Shown here: piece by piece, positions 4,006 to 43,299 of the stretch
How positions within the stretch are numbered: the stretch's first letter is position 1
How the letters are laid out: every line of letters begins with the position of its first letter
Origin: Nitrososphaeria archaeon
Lineage (GTDB): Archaea > Thermoproteota > Nitrososphaeria > JACIWG01
Reading direction: 5' to 3'
Assembly: GCA_050011875.1 (NCBI GenBank)
Contig: JBEKIG010000002.1
Coordinates: forward strand, 32,001-96,000
Length of the DNA stretch: 64,000 bases
Notes under the pieces: model-generated
Databases searched by the model: none
Told to the model about the DNA's origin: nothing
Seen by the model: the letters and a program-made list of their open reading frames with translations, nothing else
Made by a program: the position numbers and the translations under genes

Positions 4006-4702
4006 TTAATAATTCACCTGTTTGCATGTGACATAGATTTTGTCGGAAATATATATCTTTAACTGAATGAATTTTTTTATTTACAGGCTAGCTGTTTTAT
4101 TATTTTTTATTTGTTTAAAGGTGATAAATAGAAAGAAATCATTTTTTTATCTTTTTCATAGTTTTAGCAAGTAAAATGACGTCTCAAATCGAACTTAACT
4201 TTCCTCTCATTTACTATTTTGTTTGCTTCATTAAGGGAGAATTTTTCAAGTGATAAACGTTACTTTTCTGTAGCAACTTTGATTTTAGCATTTCATATAT
4301 TTCCAGTCGATTGGCGAACCCCAGAATCGAAATCTGGTATAGGCAATAAGGAAAGTCGACGCACTTAACTAGAAAAGATAAGTGCCTGACGTTCTTATCA
4401 TTTTCAACCACTTTAATAAAATTATTACATTTCCAAGAAAAGAAATTAAGAAAATGTTCTGGTGTATAAAATGATGGATCCAAAATTTAATAATAGAACA
4501 ATAAATTCTAAAAAATCGGAAGTTTAAGAAGACACTTCGTTAAAAGATGAAGAAAAGAAAAAGAAAGCTAGGTTGAGAAGACGTGGACTTTATAGGAAAG
4601 CGCTTGCCGACTAGTATAGAAGTCAATAAAGCAGTCACTTTGAGAAAAAGTAAAAAAATTTAGAAAAATTCTTTCTCATATGAAATAAATGGGAAGAATA
4701 GT

Positions 4703-4733
4703 GTGTGAGAGGGTTCTGTTAACTTATTTGCAC
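4703..4733 (+). repeat. Left TSD (4703-4711) plus left TIR (4712-4733) of element 1
   Basis: Read directly; matches 9461-9491. Confidence 0.95.
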
Positions 4734-4838
4734 AGTGGCATTAAACTTCTTTAAAAGCCTTTCCGAAAAAATGCTTTCACATGGCATTCGGATAAACGTT
4801 ATATAAACGACAAGTGTGTGAGGATTCGAGGTGTATCT

Positions 4839-5051
4839 TTGGCTATAAAGATCACCTTCGCATTCCTATTGATTGGGAGTGTGGCAATAGCCACGTTCGG
4901 ATCAGTAGTAATGGCAGGGATAGCAAGTCTGTCGAAGCCAGTCAGCGAAGAAGTTTCAGCGACGGCTGGAGCTTACTCGTTTGATTTCATGGGGCTTGCT
5001 ATAATACTTGCCATAGCTATTGTGGCGGTTGCCTATCTTACCCACCGATAG
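4839..5051 (+). CDS. Small two-TM hydrophobic protein (70 aa), transposon cargo
   Basis: TATA-like TTATATAAA at 4799-4807; SD-like GAGGTG before TTG at 4839 (ORF track starts at 4818); two hydrophobic stretches; resembles micro-ORF 40910-41047. Confidence 0.7.
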   Translation: MAIKITFAFLLIGSVAIATFGSVVMAGIASLSKPVSEEVSATAGAYSFDFMGLAIILAIAIVAVAYLTHR

Positions 5052-5074
5052 CGATGTGAGGTGTAATAGACATG

Positions 5075-5154
5075 GCTCATACTGAGTGTGGGCAAATTGC
5101 AGGTAAGGGTGAGGCTATTCACCCTTACCCCCTCCCACTTTTTTTCAAGTGGGG
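5075..5154 (+). terminator. Conserved hairpin plus T-tract (terminator or structured RNA motif)
   Basis: Perfect 11-bp stem GGTAAGGGTGA/TCACCCTTACC at 5102-5129, T7 at 5139-5145, second stem CCCACTT/AAGTGGG. Confidence 0.6.
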
Positions 5155-5320
5155 ATAATACGTACGTATTTACGTAATTTGTAATGTTTAATAAACTTTT
5201 TTTAAAACTTGAGACGTTTTTGCCATAGGGTATACCCCTATATTTTATTTGCGGGGGCTTTGAACATATCCTAAGAATATCTTTAAAGATATATATAGTG
5301 GTATATCCTTATGGATATGC

Positions 5321-6226
5321 GTGGGAAATATGATATGCAAATACTGTCTATCTGAATCGGTCAAACCAGCTGGTTCAATGGATGGAAGGAAACTTGTAAG
5401 ATGCAATGTATGTAATCGCAGATTCTTTGAAAATGATAAACTTCCAAAGATGAGAAGTAAAAAATATGTTATAGTATCAGCTATTTCCATGTATTTTGAT
5501 GGTCTTTCAGTTAGGAAGACCTCGAGACAATTAGAAAGCATCTTTGGAGAGAAGGTAAGCCAAGTAACTATCTGGAAGTGGGTTCAAAAATACTCGAAGA
5601 TTGTAAGCGAATATGTTAGGACGTTAACCCCTAACCTTTCAGGTAAATGGCATCATGACGAAACAGTAATTAGTTGCGATGGAAGAAACCAGTGGTTCTG
5701 GGAGATGATAGACGAAGACACAAAGTTTTTAGTGGCGTCCCACATATCACAAGACAGAACAATCGAAGATACAGTTGAAGTATTCTCGAAAGCTATGGAG
5801 ATGGCAAAGCAGAGACCTAACGTCCTATTCGTTGACGGTTCACACGCCTACGATAGAGCCTTCAATAAAGTCTTCTACACAAGATACAAGGCAAACAAGG
5901 TTGAATTAGTTAAGAAAGTTGGGATAAGAGCAAGGGAGACAAATAACATAGTTGAAAGACTACATGAGACACTGAAGGAAAGAACAAAGATAATGCGTGG
6001 ATTCAAAAACCAAGATTCAGCAAAGCTAATACTGGAAGGATATGTAGTAAACTATAATTTCGCAAGACCACACCTAACCCTTAAAGGGAAAACACCAGCC
6101 GAAGCAAGCGGAATAGAAGTTAAAGGATGGAAACAGCTAATCGAAAACGCAATTCAATCCGAGAATATAGGGGCGCAACCTCAAACACAGAGAAAAGCAG
6201 TCGAAGTTATGCAGGTGGTTCGATGA
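5321..6226 (+). CDS. IS6-family-like DDE transposase with N-terminal zinc ribbon
   Basis: CKYC...CNVC, HTH (GLSVRK..VTIWKWV), WHHDET / FVDGS / NIVER triad, RPHxxLxGKTPA tail. Confidence 0.92.
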   Translation: MGNMICKYCLSESVKPAGSMDGRKLVRCNVCNRRFFENDKLPKMRSKKYVIVSAISMYFDGLSVRKTSRQLESIFGEKVSQVTIWKWVQKYSKIVSEYVRTLTPNLSGKWHHDETVISCDGRNQWFWEMIDEDTKFLVASHISQDRTIEDTVEVFSKAMEMAKQRPNVLFVDGSHAYDRAFNKVFYTRYKANKVELVKKVGIRARETNNIVERLHETLKERTKIMRGFKNQDSAKLILEGYVVNYNFARPHLTLKGKTPAEASGIEVKGWKQLIENAIQSENIGAQPQTQRKAVEVMQVVR

Positions 6227-6399
6227 AAAAAGCCCTTGTTGCGCTACCAGATCAAGTGTGGGACATTATAGACTCAAAGCTAAAAGGCAAACTTGGGGAG
6301 GGACACTCGGACATAATAAGAACAATCGTGATAGCCTACCTTTCAGAGCAAGGATATTTAAGCGAAGGTGGAAAAAATGCCGAAGAAAGAAAAGACTAA
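6223..6399 (+). CDS. Ribbon-helix-helix (CopG-like) regulator, 58 aa
   Basis: ATGA overlap with transposase stop; MKKALVALPDQVWDII...SDIIRTIVIAYL pattern. Confidence 0.7.
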   Translation: MKKALVALPDQVWDIIDSKLKGKLGEGHSDIIRTIVIAYLSEQGYLSEGGKNAEERKD

Positions 6400-6532
6400 A
6401 ACAAAGACCAAAGACGATGAAGTTGACATACTGGACACCATGATAACGTCATTAGCAGAGCTACTGGAAGAGAAAGGTGTCATAACTCAAGAAGAATGGG
6501 AAAAGAAAATCAAAAAGAATCTTAGAGGTTAG
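6377..6532 (+). CDS. Small hypothetical protein (51 aa), missed by ORF track
   Basis: SD-like AGGTGG then ATG; MPKKEKTK...LAELLEEKGVITQEEWEKKIKKNLRG. Confidence 0.65.
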   Translation: MPKKEKTKTKTKDDEVDILDTMITSLAELLEEKGVITQEEWEKKIKKNLRG

Positions 6533-6567
6533 AAAAGAATAAAAAGAGTCTCTATCCTAAAATATAT

Positions 6568-6683
6568 GGTTTGAGGGGTTAGCGGAACGAGCATGATTAC
6601 AGGTTTATACCCTCATGAGTGCTTGCACACTCATGTCGCCACGTTTCATGCAAGCCTAACCCGTTAACCTTTCCTCCCAAATC
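6568..6683. ncRNA. Candidate multi-stem structured RNA inside element 1
   Basis: Nested stems GGGTTAG/CTAACCC, GCATGA/TCATGC and CATGAGTG/CACTCATG, with a GCAA tetraloop on the minus strand. Confidence 0.4.
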
Positions 6684-8029
6684 TATTTTTTCTCCTCTTT
6701 GCTAGATTGCTGTTCTATAACAGGTTTCTCCCACGCCTCAAATCCTACTCCTTGCTTGGGTTTAGTCTCCTCTAAATTTAATACGTTATCCGTTTTCTTA
6801 GTGTTCCCGTTCCCTTCTTCTATTATGGTGGTTTCGTTATCAGTTCCTTGATTATAGATTCTTATAGGAATGTCCAGTAGCTGCAATTTCTCTCTGAACT
6901 CTGCAACCTTGACCTTAGGAAGTATGGTTTCTAGCTGTACACCGTTTGCCATAAGTAGGACTATAAACTGTTCTTCCTGCGTAAGACTTGAGACTTTGCT
7001 CTGTAACGTATACCATGTTTTCTTTAATAGAGATAAGAGTGGTTCGTAAAGCCATACTGCCATACCAAGTTTCCTATTCCGTGAAGACTTGAATAAGATC
7101 GTGTGTAACATTGAGTAAAGACGCCAGAGGAATAATTGGTTCTCATCCGCTGTTGCAACCCATAGAAATCGATCCTGTTGGAGAAAACTATTTCTCAGAG
7201 CTTCATTGCCAAGATGCTTCCGAATTTTAGCTAAGAAATCATCTCTTGCTTTCTGTTCATCTACTCCTAATTTCTCATAAAACCCTAGATAGCCAAATGC
7301 TCTTTGTGCTATTTCATCATCTGAAAGAGACTCACCAGCGTGCTCCACCAAAAAAGGAATATGGAAGAAAAAGTTGTCTTCAGGACTTACCGAATAAAGC
7401 TCTTGGAGTGGAAGTGTATCCTTTGCTTCTTCAACACCAACAAGAGTTGGAATCCATGTTTTGTTTGAATTTTTCTTAACTAAATTAAATGATTGGAGAA
7501 CTCTTAGCAAGTGCAAAGTTGTAGATGCTTTAAGCTTAATACCATTAGATATGTCGGTTAAACGTACAGGTTTTCCAATTTTCATTAAAAAGTTAAGTAC
7601 CAACTTCTGATTTGGTTTGAGATCAAAGGTCTTTTCAATTTTTAAATTTTCTTTTTCAAGGTCTTTTTCAATTTTTAAATTTTGACCCTTGTCTGGAATA
7701 TAGATGGTGATTCCTTCTTTGCTTTTCTTTATCTTCTCTTTCTGCTCGAATTTTTCATGCTCTTTCTTTTCCTCTCTGAGAGGTAGGGCTATACCATTGG
7801 CGATTGCCAATTTTGAGTTTATAATTTGGTTCCCTATATTACTTCTCTCAATATTCGTCTCAATGATTTGACCTCGGTCTTTAAGGTAACGCAAGATATT
7901 TGCTATTTTATGGGTGATGTCCTTTCTTCCTTTTCCTTCCATACCACCTGCGAAATGTTCATATAAGTTTGGTCGATTACAATCTGAGTGTTCTTTCAAA
8001 TATTGATAGACCTCAGCTTTATCAACCAA
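6683..8029 (-). CDS. Hypothetical protein with two predicted winged-helix domains, transposon cargo
   Basis: 448-aa ORF; LKPNQKLVLNFL...LTDISNGIKLKASTTLHLLRVLQSFNLV is wHTH-like; internal NLKIEK repeat. Confidence 0.7.
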   Translation of the reverse strand: MVDKAEVYQYLKEHSDCNRPNLYEHFAGGMEGKGRKDITHKIANILRYLKDRGQIIETNIERSNIGNQIINSKLAIANGIALPLREEKKEHEKFEQKEKIKKSKEGITIYIPDKGQNLKIEKDLEKENLKIEKTFDLKPNQKLVLNFLMKIGKPVRLTDISNGIKLKASTTLHLLRVLQSFNLVKKNSNKTWIPTLVGVEEAKDTLPLQELYSVSPEDNFFFHIPFLVEHAGESLSDDEIAQRAFGYLGFYEKLGVDEQKARDDFLAKIRKHLGNEALRNSFLQQDRFLWVATADENQLFLWRLYSMLHTILFKSSRNRKLGMAVWLYEPLLSLLKKTWYTLQSKVSSLTQEEQFIVLLMANGVQLETILPKVKVAEFREKLQLLDIPIRIYNQGTDNETTIIEEGNGNTKKTDNVLNLEETKPKQGVGFEAWEKPVIEQQSSKEEKK

Positions 8030-8031
8030 TG

Positions 8032-9300
8032 CTATTCAACCTCCCTAGTGACCATTCGTGAAACAACATGCCCTACTGGATTAACTACATCACATAGTCC
8101 TGCAACTCTATTGAGTATTGTACGGGTTCGGCTATCGGTAGGTTGATAGATGCCATCTTGACTTCGTGACACAAGACCAACTCTCATCCAAAGCGGTCCC
8201 ATCATTCTTTTACCAAATTCGTCTAGGTCAACATCCTTTACTCCATTCTTTAAGATTAAATCAATCAGTTGCGAGACCTTCGTACCATCGCCAAAGTCCT
8301 TACCAAGCTTTGACTGGAGTTCACCAAGCGTTGCAAGTGCACTTTCATTCTTTGGCAGGTACTTGCTTAACTTTGTACCCAAAAGTTTCTCGAGGTCTTC
8401 TATATACTTAGCTTGCCTATTGAAATAAAAAATATTATCGCCATGTCGCATTGTGATCAGAGAGGGATTCAGTCCACTAACCAAGTCCTCTAAAGTTCCA
8501 TATTCGACCAATTCATATGCAAGTTCTTTACTAACTAATGCAGGTACACTAGCGAGAGAACTCGGATTGCCCGTGGCTGGAAAAGTTGGTAAGATAAACA
8601 ATTTGTCGTCATATTCGCTGTAAAACGGCACTTTATTGTGTTGATGAAATGGTTCAATATTCATAACGCTAAAGATATTGACAGGTTTGATAACTTCTAG
8701 TAGATGATGGCTATTGAGATTATCCTGTACGGTAGAGGCTAAATCACGTCTAGACATCTTACGAGGGTTTGCATCGACTAACGCCATCGAGCCTATGGTC
8801 TGAGCCATAGCCTTCACATATGGACTTCTAAGCATCGATTCAGGGTTCATAAGCATAGCAAAGGTAGTTGAACTCACTTCAGGAAAAATTTTCACAAATT
8901 TTTGATTCTCTTCTGTATATATATAAATCTGCCCAAGTTCAATGGAACGTTGGAGTTTCAAAGTGACGAGTCCTTTAACTTCGGATCGTCTATCTTGGCG
9001 TTCTAAAATTGGAATACCTGTAATTCTCATATATGCCGTGGTGGTTTTTTCCAAGAAGTCATCCAAAGGAAGTACTCCGCCAAAACTTTCAAAGACTTCA
9101 GCAACAGCAATACCTAATTTTAAATTCAGGGCTCTGCGATAATTCACTTTAGTTTTCTCCAAGGCGTCTTTAGTCCCGATGTATGAAGTTGAAAGAACAG
9201 TTGTTCGCATGGCTCTTTGGCTGAAGTCTTCCTTATCCATGTCAAGTGCATTAGCTATCTTTTCAACTTCTTTCATGATCATTTGAAGTTTGTTATCCAT
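8032..9300 (-). CDS. Hypothetical protein (422 aa), transposon cargo
   Basis: Long ORF, SD-like AGGT and TATA upstream, 2 bp from next gene; no recognised motif. Confidence 0.75.
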   Translation of the reverse strand: MDNKLQMIMKEVEKIANALDMDKEDFSQRAMRTTVLSTSYIGTKDALEKTKVNYRRALNLKLGIAVAEVFESFGGVLPLDDFLEKTTTAYMRITGIPILERQDRRSEVKGLVTLKLQRSIELGQIYIYTEENQKFVKIFPEVSSTTFAMLMNPESMLRSPYVKAMAQTIGSMALVDANPRKMSRRDLASTVQDNLNSHHLLEVIKPVNIFSVMNIEPFHQHNKVPFYSEYDDKLFILPTFPATGNPSSLASVPALVSKELAYELVEYGTLEDLVSGLNPSLITMRHGDNIFYFNRQAKYIEDLEKLLGTKLSKYLPKNESALATLGELQSKLGKDFGDGTKVSQLIDLILKNGVKDVDLDEFGKRMMGPLWMRVGLVSRSQDGIYQPTDSRTRTILNRVAGLCDVVNPVGHVVSRMVTREVE

Positions 9301-9460
9301 CGTTATCTTTACCTTTAACCAACTATGGTTAGACTTGGCTAAATATAAACATATTTAGTATTGTTTAGCCTTGTTCAACATCTAACCTCAAAATTGTGTA
9401 TACTCTAATTTTGAACCACCATATAATACTAAACCGTTAAAACCTTATAACACTCAAGTC

Positions 9461-9491
9461 GTGCAAATAAGTTAACAGAACCGTGTGAGAG
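9461..9491 (+). repeat. Right TIR (9461-9482) plus TSD (9483-9491) of element 1
   Basis: GTGCAAATAAGTTAACAGAACC then GTGTGAGAG. Confidence 0.95.
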
Positions 9492-31112: not shown

Positions 31113-32132
31113 TTAGGTTCTAAAGACGATGTGTACTTTGTTTCCTGTTGGGTCGGTTTTCTTTAGGTATGCTAACTTGAAGCCTGGCGCGATTATTGGC
31201 TGTTTAAGTTCGATGTCTTTTTCTTTTAGGTAGTTGTATGCGGCTTCAAAATTTGACACGTTTATTGCTATGTGTGTTCGTGTTTCCTTTTCATACACTT
31301 TCATGACTTCTATTTTTCCAATACTTGTCCCTGTTAGCATTATCGACGATGGCCCTTCTTCTTTTGCGAAGCCAAAGGTTTTAGTGTACCAGTCAGCTAT
31401 TTGCGTAGCATTTGCGGTTTCTGTTGGATATATTGCTATATGTTCAACGCCTAAAAATATGGATGTGCCTTTTGCTTCTCGTATCCATTGCAAGCATTCT
31501 TTAGTCTTCTCTTTTATTGTTTGGAAGTCTACTGGTTTAACTAAGTTTTTGACTATCAGGTTTGAGCCCAAGTTTATTGCTGCCGCGCCCGCTCTTATCC
31601 AACTTGAAATGCCTTCCTTTGTGGCTTCTACGCCTCCTGAGGGCATAAGTTTTAGCCATGGAAATGGGCCGAGCAAGTCTTTTATAAATTGCGGGCCTAG
31701 TACGTCTGCTGGAAATATTTTGATTATGTCAGCGCCCATCTCTTCTGCCATGGATATTTCTGATGGAGTACTGCATCCTGGAATATATAATGTATTGTAT
31801 CTATTACATGTCTTTGCCACATCTGCGTTGAATATAGGTCCCACGATAAAGTTTGCTCCACAATTGATGTAGAGTGAGGCTGCTGATGGCTCGACTATTG
31901 TGCCAGCTCCTAGGATGAAGTCTGGAAACTCTCTATCCTTCCATTTTACTAGTTCGCTAAAGACTTGATATGCTAATGCGCCGCGGTTTGTGAACTCAAC
32001 CACTTTAGCTCCGCCTTCAGTGCATGCCTTAACAATTTTTTTGGCGGTCTCCAAGTCTTCGTCATAAAATGTTGGAATTAGCTCGATCTCTAGAACGCTT
32101 GAAACAACCTCATGTCTCATCGACCTCGACAT
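31113..32132 (-). CDS. KDPG/KHG aldolase fused to a C-terminal VOC domain
   Basis: VEFTNR, GAGT, IKIFPA, MPSGGV; then EHIAI...WY...FGF, THIAINV, DPTGN. Confidence 0.85.
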   Translation of the reverse strand: MSRSMRHEVVSSVLEIELIPTFYDEDLETAKKIVKACTEGGAKVVEFTNRGALAYQVFSELVKWKDREFPDFILGAGTIVEPSAASLYINCGANFIVGPIFNADVAKTCNRYNTLYIPGCSTPSEISMAEEMGADIIKIFPADVLGPQFIKDLLGPFPWLKLMPSGGVEATKEGISSWIRAGAAAINLGSNLIVKNLVKPVDFQTIKEKTKECLQWIREAKGTSIFLGVEHIAIYPTETANATQIADWYTKTFGFAKEEGPSSIMLTGTSIGKIEVMKVYEKETRTHIAINVSNFEAAYNYLKEKDIELKQPIIAPGFKLAYLKKTDPTGNKVHIVFRT

Positions 32133-40393: not shown

Positions 40394-40627
40394 TTATCCT
40401 TCCATGACGATCATGGTCAACGTTGAAATGACATTATCAAGTCGTCTAGTCCTCCAAGTTATTATCTCCTTCAACTTGTCCATTGTTTCTGCTTCGACTT
40501 TTGCTATTACGTCGTATGTGCCGTACACAACATAAGCTTCTTTTACTTCCTTTATGCTTTTTAGTTCTTTCAATATTTCTTTTTCTGTTCCTGCTTCTGA
40601 ATTGATCAACACAAATGCTATTTGCAT
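40394..40627 (-). CDS. Stand-alone Lrp/AsnC ligand-binding domain protein
   Basis: AFVLIN, VYGTYDVIAKV, TLTMIV. Confidence 0.9.
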   Translation of the reverse strand: MQIAFVLINSEAGTEKEILKELKSIKEVKEAYVVYGTYDVIAKVEAETMDKLKEIITWRTRRLDNVISTLTMIVMEG

Positions 40628-40834
40628 CTTAATCCTTAGCTTATTAATACAAAAGAATATTAAACTTTTCTTTTTCAGGCTCTGTCAAGTCTCCGTTTGG
40701 TTTTATAGGCTGTAAAAAATCGTTTGGTAGATTCTAATATTCTTGGTGTTAATTAGACTAACATGGCTTTAGTTAGATAGCTTTAAATAATGACTTTTGG
40801 TAACAAAGTTACCATAAAAAGCTTTTTATGCCAT

Positions 40835-40914
40835 CCTTTAAAAAAGGGTGCAGGCGGTGGGGTAAGAGGTGCTTACCCCATCACCTTCTTTCTGCCATTT
40901 GGACAGTATTCAGC
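40835..40914 (-). terminator. Conserved hairpin plus T-tract (terminator or structured RNA motif)
   Basis: About 15-bp stem at 40852-40886 containing GGGGTAAG/CTTACCCC, followed on the minus strand by T6. Confidence 0.6.
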
Positions 40915-41047
40915 TATACCTTCCACGTCCCCATTTTAGTAGAAATGGCACGACAGATGCTAATATTGCAACTAACGAGTAGTCAATTGCAAATGTCACC
41001 ACCATTCCTATCATGAGGGACAGTGTGAAGGCTACTTTGAGGTGCAA
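40910..41047 (-). CDS. Hydrophobic micro-protein (45 aa), missed by ORF track
   Basis: TTG start, MHLKVAFTLSLMIGMVVTFAIDYSLVAILASVVPFLLKWGRGRYS; TTTATAA upstream; resembles 4839-5051. Confidence 0.55.
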   Translation of the reverse strand: MHLKVAFTLSLMIGMVVTFAIDYSLVAILASVVPFLLKWGRGRYS

Positions 41048-41116
41048 AGTAAACCGTCGCTTTGAATTAATATACACTCAGTTATAAAGTGTTATCTTAG
41101 TATGTTGAAAGAATGG

Positions 41117-42229
41117 TCAAATATCTTTGCTTGCGTTTTGAATTAGTGTTATCCACTTGTTATCTCCTTTTACTTCAATTCCACATCGATCTGCGGGTGT
41201 CTTCCCTTCTAATGCTTCATGTGGTCTTATGTAGTTATGATATATCTGATAGCCTTTAAGAATAGGTGTATCTGTTTTCTTTAATCCTCTCATAACCTTC
41301 TCTCTATCTCTTATCTCTCCGTTCATCCTCTCCATCTTATTGTTGTGAACTTCCCCACTTAACCGAATTTCTCTTATGTGCTTTGTTCTTGGGTTATGTT
41401 TAGTGTAGAACTCTTTCGTGCATGCGTCTTGGTATGCTCGCAGTCCATCTGTTATTATGGTAAGAGGTTTTTTTCCAGATATTTCTTTTCCCATTTTGAA
41501 AAGGTTTCTTGCGTCATGAGTATATTTTGTGTCCGCTACCTCTTGAGCAATCCAATATCTCGTTTCATCATCCATAAGAGCGAAGAGGTATTTCATATTC
41601 CCTTTAACCTTAACCCATAATTCGTCAGCTCTCCACGTATCGCTAACATTTGGTTTCAGTTTCTCTACATAGTTTTCCATGAGTGAGATGTATTTCTTTA
41701 TCCAATTATAGACGGTCTGATGTGAGACCTCGACACCTAAGAGTCTTAAAGATTCCATCGTGTTTCTCAAAGATTCTCCGTTAAAGTATAGTTGCATAGC
41801 TGAGGTTATTGCTTGAGGGTTATGTTTCATCTTCTCAAAACCTATGTTAATAGTAAAATATTTACCACATTCTTTACAGTAGAACTTTTGAATATCGCCA
41901 AACTTATTGTGTCTTATACCCCACTTCATCAAGTTCTGAGAGCCACAGAATATGCAACTTGAAATATTTGTGATAGGCTCAATTTTCCTAACCTCAACTT
42001 CCTTTCTTATTGAAAGGGAAAATTCAACCGCAAAAATATGCTTACATTTCACACCTCTAAAAGTATAGTCTGGGCAAGAACATTTCCAGCCTAACTCTGT
42101 GCTGAAAACATCATAAACACCATTACCACTTTGAGAATTAACTTTGTAAGAGTGTTCATCTATTCTCTTTACCTCTGTCCTCTTTTCACATATCATTTTC
42201 CCAAGTTGTTCACGAAGGTTCGTTTCCAT
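41117..42229 (-). CDS. IS6-family-like DDE transposase with SWIM and zinc-ribbon domains
   Basis: CSCPD...CKH (SWIM), CIFC...CKEC, HTH, WRADEL / ITDGL / NKMER, RPHEALEGKTPA. Confidence 0.92.
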   Translation of the reverse strand: METNLREQLGKMICEKRTEVKRIDEHSYKVNSQSGNGVYDVFSTELGWKCSCPDYTFRGVKCKHIFAVEFSLSIRKEVEVRKIEPITNISSCIFCGSQNLMKWGIRHNKFGDIQKFYCKECGKYFTINIGFEKMKHNPQAITSAMQLYFNGESLRNTMESLRLLGVEVSHQTVYNWIKKYISLMENYVEKLKPNVSDTWRADELWVKVKGNMKYLFALMDDETRYWIAQEVADTKYTHDARNLFKMGKEISGKKPLTIITDGLRAYQDACTKEFYTKHNPRTKHIREIRLSGEVHNNKMERMNGEIRDREKVMRGLKKTDTPILKGYQIYHNYIRPHEALEGKTPADRCGIEVKGDNKWITLIQNASKDI

Positions 42230-42241
42230 TTATGCATCGCT

Positions 42242-42263
42242 ATATACCTATACACAGGTATAT
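42242..42263. promoter_or_regulatory. Candidate operator in divergent tnp/AbrB promoter
   Basis: ATATACCT-N6-AGGTATAT inverted repeat next to TTATATAA. Confidence 0.45.
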
Positions 42264-42324
42264 TATATAAACTTATGCCTATTAGAGTGAACATTTATAT
42301 ACCTAAGACAAGCATAGGATTACC

Positions 42325-42504
42325 ATGAGCCTATTAAGCACAGCGACTTTTGCAAGTCCAAAGACGAAATCGCTTCGAGCCACTATTCCAGAGGGTATAG
42401 TGGCATACTTAGACCTCAAAGCGGGAGATAAGTTAGAGTGGAGAATGGAAATAGAGGATGGGAAAAAAGTTGTAAAGTTGCGGAAGGAAAAGAGAAGCGA
42501 ATGA
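42325..42504 (+). CDS. AbrB/MazE/SpoVT-family DNA-binding protein (59 aa), missed by ORF track
   Basis: SLRATIPEGIVAYLDLKAGDKLEW. Confidence 0.8.
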   Translation: MSLLSTATFASPKTKSLRATIPEGIVAYLDLKAGDKLEWRMEIEDGKKVVKLRKEKRSE

Positions 42505-42505
42505 A

Positions 42506-42985
42506 ATGGCTTATTGGAAACCAGAACTTTCAGAAGTGGACAAAAATGTGATAAGACAAGCTGACAAAATACTTTCATCCCTTGAAGGTGAATATATACT
42601 GGATTTGGAAATGGCTGAAAAAAAGGAGAAACATGGTGGTCATTTCGAAGTTACTTGGTTTAAACAAAGTTGGTTCAAACCAAAGGCGGATTATGCAACT
42701 TTATGGTCACAAACAAAAAGCGTATACCAAGAATTTAGACCTCTTAATAATTTTAAAACTGTCATATGGGCAGATAGGTTAATCAAGATATTCAACTTGT
42801 TTGAAGCAAGTGGAATATTCAAGAAAAGCGATACATTTGTCAAGTTAAAAAAATCAGAGGAGGAAATTAAAACTTTGAAGGATAAAATTGAGAAGTTAGA
42901 AAATCAAATGGCGTCTATGTTCACTGAATGCCCAAAATGTGGATATACAAAACCAGATAATGTCCTTCACAGTAGCGTAGAGTGA
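42506..42985 (+). CDS. Hypothetical protein with coiled coil and CPKC knuckle, transposon cargo
   Basis: 159-aa ORF 1 bp after AbrB gene. Confidence 0.65.
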   Translation: MAYWKPELSEVDKNVIRQADKILSSLEGEYILDLEMAEKKEKHGGHFEVTWFKQSWFKPKADYATLWSQTKSVYQEFRPLNNFKTVIWADRLIKIFNLFEASGIFKKSDTFVKLKKSEEEIKTLKDKIEKLENQMASMFTECPKCGYTKPDNVLHSSVE

Positions 42986-43299
42986 TTCTAATGCCTAATC
43001 TTGTGAAATGCTCAAGATGCGATAAAGTCTTTATCTGGGAGGAATTTGAGAAACATAGCTGCACCCCTTGGGTTAAAGGGTTTAAGGAAATTAGAACCCC
43101 TTTTTGGTACGAACATGAAACACAAGACGGGCGTAAAACCATCAACTTTGATGGACTCGATGACGGAATATCCTATAAGATAATCTTAGAAAAAGAACGG
43201 GAAGCAATCGAATACTTACCAACCATCACCAAACGAAAATTTACAGATGAAAAACCAAACAAAGACTTGACAAAGCCCTTTTTCAACTTAAAAATATAA
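42982..43299 (+). CDS. Small zinc-finger-like protein running through the right TIR
   Basis: CSRC...HSC; GTGA overlap with upstream gene; stop lies outside the element. Confidence 0.6.
   Translation: MILMPNLVKCSRCDKVFIWEEFEKHSCTPWVKGFKEIRTPFWYEHETQDGRKTINFDGLDDGISYKIILEKEREAIEYLPTITKRKFTDEKPNKDLTKPFFNLKI

Follow-up and report, generated by a model that had tools for sequence, protein, structure and literature searches.

The 64,000-nt window described here (positions 32,001 to 96,000 of the forward strand of contig JBEKIG010000002.1, assembly GCA_050011875.1) belongs to the genome of a Nitrososphaeria archaeon of the Thermoproteota, assembled from peat metagenomes, and contains two different transposons of the IS6 family, each with a copy of one small cassette. 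The cassette comprises a TATA-type promoter, a short open reading frame (ORF) for a hydrophobic peptide and a structured 3′ domain. It is tentatively read, with a confidence a little short of an even chance, as a mobile, translationally locked gene of a small membrane peptide, built like the gene of a bacterial type I toxin. The simplest account is that its RNA was selected for compactness and for hiding the start codon, and that, within one lineage, the gene came to reside in two IS6-type transposons unrelated to each other. Although the cassette would thus work like a type I toxin gene, it is kept here outside that class, its antitoxin partner and its toxicity being hypothetical, and a toxin-like function as such is regarded as doubtful.

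Two IS6-type transposons and their common cassette

Element 1 occupies positions 4712-9482 (4771 bp) and is bordered by perfect 22-nt terminal inverted repeats (TIRs) at 4712..4733 (plus strand) and 9461..9482 (minus strand), 100% complementary to each other, with 8-bp target site duplications at 4704..4711 (TGTGAGAG) and 9484..9491. Element 2 (40678-43277, 2600 bp) has 27-nt TIRs at 40678..40704 (plus) and 43251..43277 (minus), of which 24 positions match in reverse complement, and duplications at 40670..40677 (CTTTTTCA) and 43278..43285. The insertion sites were set by comparison with G001, a congeneric genome in which the flanks are 91-96% identical and the unoccupied sites of both elements are seen, that of element 2 as a single copy of the duplicated sequence with one mismatch; past element 1 the synteny with G001 resumes at position 9486. 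The TIRs of the two elements start with GG and look alike. Transposase 1 (5321..6226, plus strand, 301 aa) contains an IS240-type DDE domain (PF13610, E 1.5e-19), and transposase 2 (41117..42229, minus strand, 370 aa) a SWIM zinc finger (PF04434, E 1.9e-5) followed by a domain of the same type (PF13610, E 1.5e-15); the two enzymes are 34% identical. The GG-starting TIRs, the 8-bp duplications and the IS240-type DDE domains assign both elements to the IS6 family. Both loci are thus true IS6-type transposons, in agreement with the preliminary description of the region, made from the sequence alone. Each element is present in a single copy in the host genome and comprises 5-6 ORFs according to the ORF listing, so that they represent passenger-carrying variants of the family, distinct from its compact form of ca. 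0.7-0.9 kb with one ORF.

A third element of the same genome (G000:C8:76798-85994, hereafter the C8 element) is 9.2 kb in size, has the target duplication CAGAAAAG and codes for a transposase that shares 73% identity with transposase 2; its cassette position is taken up by another membrane ORF, of 119 aa, and a second, inner repeat lies 75 nt from its end. Two other candidates for transposon ends were rejected: the repeat pair 5227-5242 / 6598-6613 in element 1 is not accompanied by a target duplication, while the perfect 22-nt pair 4712/9482 fits the empty site, and a 31-nt motif common to element 2 and the C8 element is subterminal. A terminal and subterminal stretch of ca. 55 nt of element 2 (40669-40732) recurs at two other sites of G001, one of them near a transposase fragment.

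The cassette lies at different ends of the two transposase genes. Cassette 1 begins 12 nt inside the left TIR of element 1, upstream of transposase 1, and cassette 2 is situated between the stop codon of transposase 2 and the TIR, hence downstream; both are on the transposase strand and overlap neither transposase gene. Common to the two loci are the TATA-type promoter, a hydrophobic ORF with a TTG start, the motif ATACTG..CAAATNGCAG, a GGTAAG/CTTACCCC hairpin and a T-tract. In cassette 1 (plus strand), the promoter (4745..4808) has its TATA box at 4800-4807, with AGTGT and ATTC downstream of it as in cassette 2, and is followed by the ORF of peptide 1 (4839..5051) and by the 3′ domain (5079..5158), consisting of ATACTG..CAAATTGCAG (5079-5102), a 12-bp hairpin (5102-5129) and a run of seven T residues (5139-5145) enclosed in a small hairpin. 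In cassette 2 (minus strand), a promoter-like region (41052..41095) with a TATA box at 41087-41081, then AGTGT and ATTC, precedes the ORF of peptide 2 (40910..41047), and the 3′ domain (40826..40909) comprises ATACTG..CAAATGGCAG (40909-40892), a hairpin (40886-40852) and a run of six T residues (40845-40840). All the strings quoted in the preliminary description were found in the stated order at both loci, and its placement of the cassette upstream of the transposase gene in one element and downstream in the other was correct.

The similarity of the two cassettes was assessed by Smith-Waterman local alignment against 500 dinucleotide shuffles. The whole-cassette alignment gives a z of 6.2 and that of the 3′ segment a z of 8.9, scores reached by 0/500 shuffles in either case, while the likeness of the promoter and 5′ segment is weak (z 3.5, 4/500 shuffles). 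Two patterns, both defined post hoc from the two loci, ATACTG.{2,12}CAAAT.GCAG and the GGTAAG...CTTACCCC hairpin, each occur at two places in the 2.64-Mb genome, namely in the two cassettes. In 100 related genomes the ATACTG pattern is found at 8 places in 7 genomes, as compared with 2 for a reversed control, and these 8 matches lie in unrelated, mostly coding sequence, with neither the hairpin nor the T-tract. The proposed likeness of the RNA motifs therefore exceeds chance. The same is not true of the peptides, whose similarity had been named beforehand as a point on which the proposal could be refuted: in a Smith-Waterman comparison with BLOSUM62 peptides 1 and 2 give a z of 1.8, with 129/2000 shuffles scoring as high, and BLASTP returns no alignment between them. 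The robust similarity of the cassettes therefore resides in their untranslated ends, not in the protein, and the 85 nt of 3′ untranslated sequence are more conserved between the copies than the peptide. Their alignment is ambiguous in that MAFFT and local alignment disagree over the 3′ domain, and a hexamer present in both stems is basal in one and apical in the other. In element 1 a further ORF of 27 aa, preceded by GAGGTG, spans the 3′ domain; it was discarded since it has no counterpart in element 2. The cassette is a passenger unit shared by both transposons.

The promoter of cassette 1 has a relative outside the transposons. Over 62 nt it is 85% identical to G000:C4:121556-121617, a region upstream of a thioredoxin ORF, and positions 4745-4806 also resemble the same thioredoxin-upstream region in G001 (L050 767-828). 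The likeness stops right past the TATA box, as if a transposon passenger had captured the promoter; judging from this junction, the transcribed part of cassette 1 appears to be fused to, and driven by, a copied thioredoxin promoter of the host.

Predicted RNA folds and encoded peptides

The folds described below are predictions for assumed transcripts 4826-5152 (element 1) and 41062-40836 (element 2), the ends of which were set from the positions of the TATA box and the T-tract. Their minimum free energies (MFEs) are -141.2 and -82.0 kcal/mol, corresponding to z values of -7.5 and -5.3 against shuffles; when adjusted for G+C content and compared with random windows of the genome, z is -5.8 for element 1 (0/300 windows as extreme) and -4.2 for element 2 (0/400). 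The antisense sequences fold less stably (-105.2 versus -141.2 kcal/mol for element 1 and -72.5 versus -82.0 for element 2) and contain fewer G-U pairs, 4 versus 18 in the sense fold of element 1 and 4 versus 8 in that of element 2; the greater stability of the sense fold assigns the structure to the sense RNA. Synonymous codons were also permuted, a procedure that preserves both the peptide and the codon usage. The permuted sequences lose much of the fold (-116.5 +/- 4.4 as against -141.2 kcal/mol for element 1, z -5.6; -68.9 +/- 3.0 as against -82.0 for element 2, z -4.4; 0/150 permutations in each case), so that the choice of codons itself encodes the folding. Among 27 loci with relatives of transposase 2, the region downstream of the gene in element 2 has the strongest structure (z -5.96), and none of the others folds like it. 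The next, L124 1-230 (G246:C9; z -4.46), was rejected as a counterpart, as its opposite strand is more stable (-79.3 versus -65.5 kcal/mol) and it contains no hydrophobic ORF.

Both RNAs are predicted to fold on the same plan: a 7-bp hairpin with the UUG start codon, a long rod, a small hairpin, a large GC-rich hairpin and the U-tract. In both folds the rod is formed by pairing of the beginning of the ORF with its end, and the U-tract lies inside the last small hairpin. The start hairpins (4835..4852, plus strand, and 41033..41051, minus strand) leave the start codon with a predicted unpaired probability of 0.007-0.095 in element 1 and 0.011-0.021 in element 2, compared with a mean of 0.45 for the start codons of 80 control genes, 11% of which are at or below 0.05. 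The arms of this hairpin are AUCUUUG/UAAAGAU in element 1 and UACUUUG/CAAAGUA in element 2, so that between the copies the two outer pairs are swapped on both sides, that is, in a compensatory manner, and one G-U pair is replaced by G-C; the AAAG arm stands in a different codon register in each copy. On the opposite strand of element 2 there is a terminator-like site, a match to consensus only.

On the proposed mechanism, the cassette's own TATA-type promoter would drive an RNA of about 230-330 nt, coding for a small hydrophobic membrane peptide and probably ending at the GC-rich hairpin and U-tract. This RNA would be poorly translated, owing to a leader of ca. 10 nt, the UUG start, the locking of that start in the 7-bp hairpin and the rod between the ends of the ORF, and very little peptide would normally be made. 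Its output would increase only on opening of the fold, through processing, stress or the disappearance of a partner RNA, and the peptide thus released may insert into the membrane. Such a design is that of bacterial type I toxin genes, which is why the cassette may be read as a toxin-like or retention module travelling with transposons.

Peptide 1 has 70 aa and two hydrophobic segments predicted as helices, with a grand average of hydropathy (GRAVY) of 1.39. Peptide 2 has 45 aa, one long hydrophobic stretch and a basic tail, with a GRAVY of 1.16. In a phmmer search of 1.84 billion representative proteins, peptide 1 matched three proteins at E <= 0.001, including itself; the second, P0002, has 70 aa and 46% identity (E 1e-5), and the third, a 2230-aa protein matched in seven stretches, was taken for a low-complexity match. 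A profile search added P0005 (74 aa, E 4.4e-12). These homologues, of the same length as peptide 1 and 33-47% identical to it, define an unnamed family (P0001, P0002/P0004, P0005/P0006) of 70-74 aa with two further members found in metagenomes, characterised by an N-terminal M-x-I-K-[IV]-x-F-A-F, a central G-S-V-x-M, a loop K..S....S..A and a second hydrophobic helix, all of which are present in peptide 1. One family copy is recorded with L as the first residue, i.e. with a non-ATG start, and another starts with ATG; one member sits on a 680-kb contig and hence is probably chromosomal. With a codon-usage score of 0.270, peptide 1 lies among true reading frames and surpasses 99.3% of the spurious open stretches, which score 0.016 +/- 0.113, although 10% of the hydrophobic spurious ones reach 0.270. 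Peptide 1 thus appears, from its homologues and codon usage, to be a real protein of a rare two-helix family.

This family is rare in all the collections searched. Peptide word searches returned only peptide 1 itself for peptide 1 and no candidate for peptide 2; in 400 genomes of the class the best foreign match to peptide 1 had an E of 0.003, there were stops inside it and none of the matches was credible. The family profile matched nothing in IMG/VR, in 10 genomes of the order or in 400 genomes of the phylum, neither the profile nor P0002 had a match in plasmids and phages, and the ESM Atlas gave scores of 0.75-0.81, the level of shuffled proteins. A frameshifted remainder of a peptide-1-like gene was sought in element 2 and not found.

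Occurrence of the cassette and alternative explanations

The transposases are far more widespread than the cassette. Relatives of transposase 2 are found in 157/401 genomes of the class at E <= 1e-40 and those of transposase 1 in 10/401 at E <= 1e-70. The C8 element and the 29 best foreign loci with a transposase-2-like gene were examined, three of the latter coming from unpublished genomes on which nothing rests, and the sequence profiles of the cassette 5′ and 3′ parts matched nothing in them (best E 1.4 and 2.4). The cassette is also absent from the 10 transposase-1-like loci of other genomes, from the C8 element and from four transposase-2-like loci of G001. A motif scan of 185,579 species genomes gave 24 matches, all in unrelated bacteria or in coding sequence, one of the JGI metagenomes 17 matches, none in the context of the hairpin or T-tract, and one of IMG/VR none; as 20-22 bases are fixed in these patterns, the scans would overlook diverged copies. 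A covariance model built from element 2 alone found nothing on 32 loci, a negative result that is weak because the model barely scores element 1 (9 bits, E 3.4) and does not recover it with default filters. The claim that this is a conserved module of a transposon family is accordingly not borne out by the 29 and 10 loci, the C8 element, G001 and the three motif scans. What stands of the earlier interpretation is a unit that is shared, mobile and, in its predicted design, type I toxin-like; within the data reached the module is confined to one genome.

In most of the 29 loci (L099-L127) the transposase gene is immediately followed by a different ORF, the products ranging from membrane proteins of ca. 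120 aa up to soluble proteins of ca. 260 aa; relatives of the SWIM-plus-DDE transposase seem to share a passenger slot of variable content. The closest relative of element 1, in G332 (L128), has a transposase 77% identical to transposase 1 and the same type of TIR ca. 335 nt upstream. At the cassette position (ca. 335 to 90 nt upstream) it has a different, hairpin-rich stretch of 250 nt, free of ORFs, with four short GC-rich hairpins recognised by eye. As to the host, a fragment of its small-subunit (SSU) rRNA scores 777.5 bits with the archaeal and 574.7 bits with the bacterial model. The sequencing runs listed for the locus are three, all of DNA and none of RNA, and they contain it in identical contigs, with no variant and no empty-site contig among them; X1 and X2 are the probable sources, and X3 contributes low-depth fragments.

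A number of observations weigh against reading the cassette as a locked gene of type I toxin design. Type I toxins are small hydrophobic membrane-directed peptides, usually under about 60 aa, and peptide 1, with its 70 aa and two helices, is longer than is typical of them; moreover, its metagenomic homologues may lie outside mobile elements altogether. Peptide 2 has a codon-usage score (0.166) between the clear outcomes and is not significantly like peptide 1 by BLASTP or Smith-Waterman alignment; its match to the family profile is weak and covers its first 31 residues only, with 5.4 bits, a score reached by 29/2000 shuffles (p about 0.015). Neither peptide matches a Pfam or PADLOC family. The transcript ends are assumed and the folds predicted. 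The sense hairpins are passed over by a scan for bacterial-type terminators, as 6-9 nt separate the stem from the T-tract, and no conserved antisense promoter was identified at either cassette. Finally, the absence of the cassette from all the other related elements examined means that these transposons do not need it.

Foremost among the alternatives is an ordinary cargo gene, the product of which would be a small and harmless membrane protein, for instance a subunit or modulator of a membrane complex; the folding of its very stable mRNA would serve RNA stability only, and the 3′ hairpin would be a terminator. This explanation is held to be rather unlikely. The membership of peptide 1 in a conserved two-helix family, one member of which is probably chromosomal, agrees with it, as do the many different passenger ORFs at the same position in related transposons, the promoter borrowed from a housekeeping gene and the lack of any antitoxin among the findings; nevertheless, a buried UUG start behind a leader of ca. 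10 nt is odd for a gene meant for expression, the structure beyond the coding need is extreme in comparison with genome windows, and a simple terminator would not need a 3′ untranslated sequence that outconserves the protein. This last feature, the best conservation being in the untranslated 5′ and 3′ ends, would also suit a structured non-coding RNA of the transposon, acting as a transposase regulator or an insulator against read-through, with the ORFs, at least that of element 2, being incidental. Such an RNA is consistent with the lack of significant likeness between the peptides, the indecisive codon score of peptide 2 (0.166), the strand-specific folds with many G-U pairs, the different codon registers of the AAAG arm and the ORF-free, hairpin-rich 250 nt at the same place in G332. 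It is considered distinctly improbable, as the 33-47% identity of equally long homologues of peptide 1 needs selection at the protein level, the codon score of this peptide exceeds those of 99.3% of spurious open stretches, no Rfam family is matched, and the cassettes do not overlap with the transposase genes, related elements transposing without them. An RNA with no coding role at all is unlikely in element 1, given its conserved protein family, and less unlikely in element 2.

Chance or base composition, by which unrelated hydrophobic ORFs would happen to stand beside unrelated GC-rich terminator hairpins with short words in common, is disfavoured as highly improbable. The ambiguity of the 3′ alignment between MAFFT and local alignment, the different positions of the shared hexamer in the two stems and the 9 bits (E 3.4) given to element 1 by the element 2 covariance model are what could be expected from it; on the other hand, 0/500 shuffles reach the score of the 3′ alignment, both motif pairs are unique to these loci in 2.64 Mb, five features follow in the same order inside two IS6-type elements, on the transposase strand of each, and 100 related genomes give the pattern only in unrelated coding sequence. 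A reading stronger than that of a locked membrane-peptide gene would make the cassettes the first type I-like toxin modules of archaea, in which the rod-like fold of the mRNA and the locked UUG silence a membrane-active peptide and an antisense RNA converging on the conserved 3′ domain neutralises it; they would pass as a unit from one IS6-type transposon to another and render these transposons hard to lose. This is clearly unlikely.

To our knowledge, small toxins controlled by RNA come almost only from bacteria, and a candidate on archaeal transposons would offer a concrete, testable entry point, with two short ORFs and defined RNAs. If the reading of the cassette as a mobile locked gene is true, the IS6-type elements of this class are carriers which exchange small expression units and capture host promoters, not bare insertion sequences. 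Even with a harmless peptide the case is unusual, in that RNA folding shapes synonymous sites and the untranslated ends outlast the protein in conservation.

The elements comprise several other genes. In element 1 transposase 1 is followed by two small ORFs (6225-6532, plus strand), one of which, judged by eye, resembles a regulator of the ribbon-helix-helix type, and the minus strand (6683-9300) has two large ones for proteins of 448 and 422 aa; the sole family hint for this cargo is a sub-threshold IclR-type helix-turn-helix (HTH) match, nothing reaching the cut-offs of Pfam and PADLOC. In element 2 an ORF for an AbrB/MazE-type antitoxin-like protein (PF04014, E 1.7e-5) opens a group on the plus strand (42325-43299), in which a 159-aa ORF starts one base past its stop and is succeeded by an overlapping 105-aa ORF; the latter two match no family in Pfam or PADLOC, and the last ORF of the group extends 22 nt beyond the TIR. 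These ORFs may form a protein toxin-antitoxin-like operon. Beside the insertion site of element 2 (40394-40627, minus strand) lies a gene for a 77-aa stand-alone Lrp/AsnC ligand-binding domain, with several paralogues in G001 and other genomes of the family. Next to element 1, the synteny with G001 ends at 4213, and the ca. 490 bp from there to the insertion site (4214-4703) have ca. 2.4 kb of other genes in their place in G001, which is a second rearrangement adjoining this element. No Rfam family reaches its gathering score in the window, sub-threshold noise alone being present at the two loci, and the window contains no tRNA.

Comparison with known systems

The type I toxin-antitoxin (TA) loci of bacteria include hok/sok, fst/RNAII, txpA/ratA and tisB/istR. 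The cassettes share with them a small hydrophobic ORF, a highly structured mRNA whose 5′ and 3′ parts pair with each other, a sequestered translation start and the carriage on mobile DNA, the structural features being predicted in the case of the cassettes. With respect to size, peptide 2 (45 aa, basic tail) fits, and peptide 1 (70 aa, two helices) is atypical. The differences are that the peptides are unrelated to known toxin families (no match in Pfam or PADLOC, nor of the RNA in Rfam), that the cassettes reside in an archaeon, with TATA promoters and an mRNA almost devoid of a leader, and that the antisense RNA of the bacterial systems is hypothetical in their case. The likeness to type I loci drawn in the preliminary description is strengthened in silico by the hydrophobic ORF, the structured sense mRNA and the sequestered start. 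In the available part of their account, Fozo et al. (2010, PMC2887945) describe type I toxins as encoded by highly structured RNAs, predict such loci from their strong RNA structure, and report them as apparently absent outside two bacterial groups, archaea included.

The elements themselves can be set beside the IS6 family as presented in the sections available of Varani et al. (2021, PMC7986276), where its members are mostly 700-890 bp in size and one with a passenger gene, ISDsp3, is named. They share with this family, so far as that account extends, the IS240/IS6-type DDE transposase, the short GG-starting TIRs and the 8-bp target duplications, and the zinc-finger N-terminus of transposase 2 recalls the longer clades of the family. 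They differ from it in length, the host's elements being 2.6, 4.8 and 9.2 kb in size and carrying passenger genes.

Addiction-type modules inside transposons have a precedent in the Tn3 family, whose TA pairs are reportedly protein-protein (type II) systems of bacteria. The cassette, by comparison, consists of one small-peptide gene whose RNA is predicted to be structured, and its carrier is an IS6-type element of an archaeon. The point of likeness, going by the available portion of the Tn3-family study (bioRxiv 10.1101/848275), in which TA pairs are located inside the transposons, is the presence of such a module beside the transposition genes.

The closest archaeal parallel drawn here is with Methanosarcina mazei, for which the accessible part of a recent study (bioRxiv 10.1101/2025.10.28.685009) describes chromosomally encoded RNAs of small proteins, with experimentally detected antisense partners and a protective role under salt stress. 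As described there, short RNAs encode these small membrane proteins of the archaeon, and control at the RNA level is proposed, as it is for the cassettes; the M. mazei genes are chromosomal, whereas the cassettes are borne by transposons.

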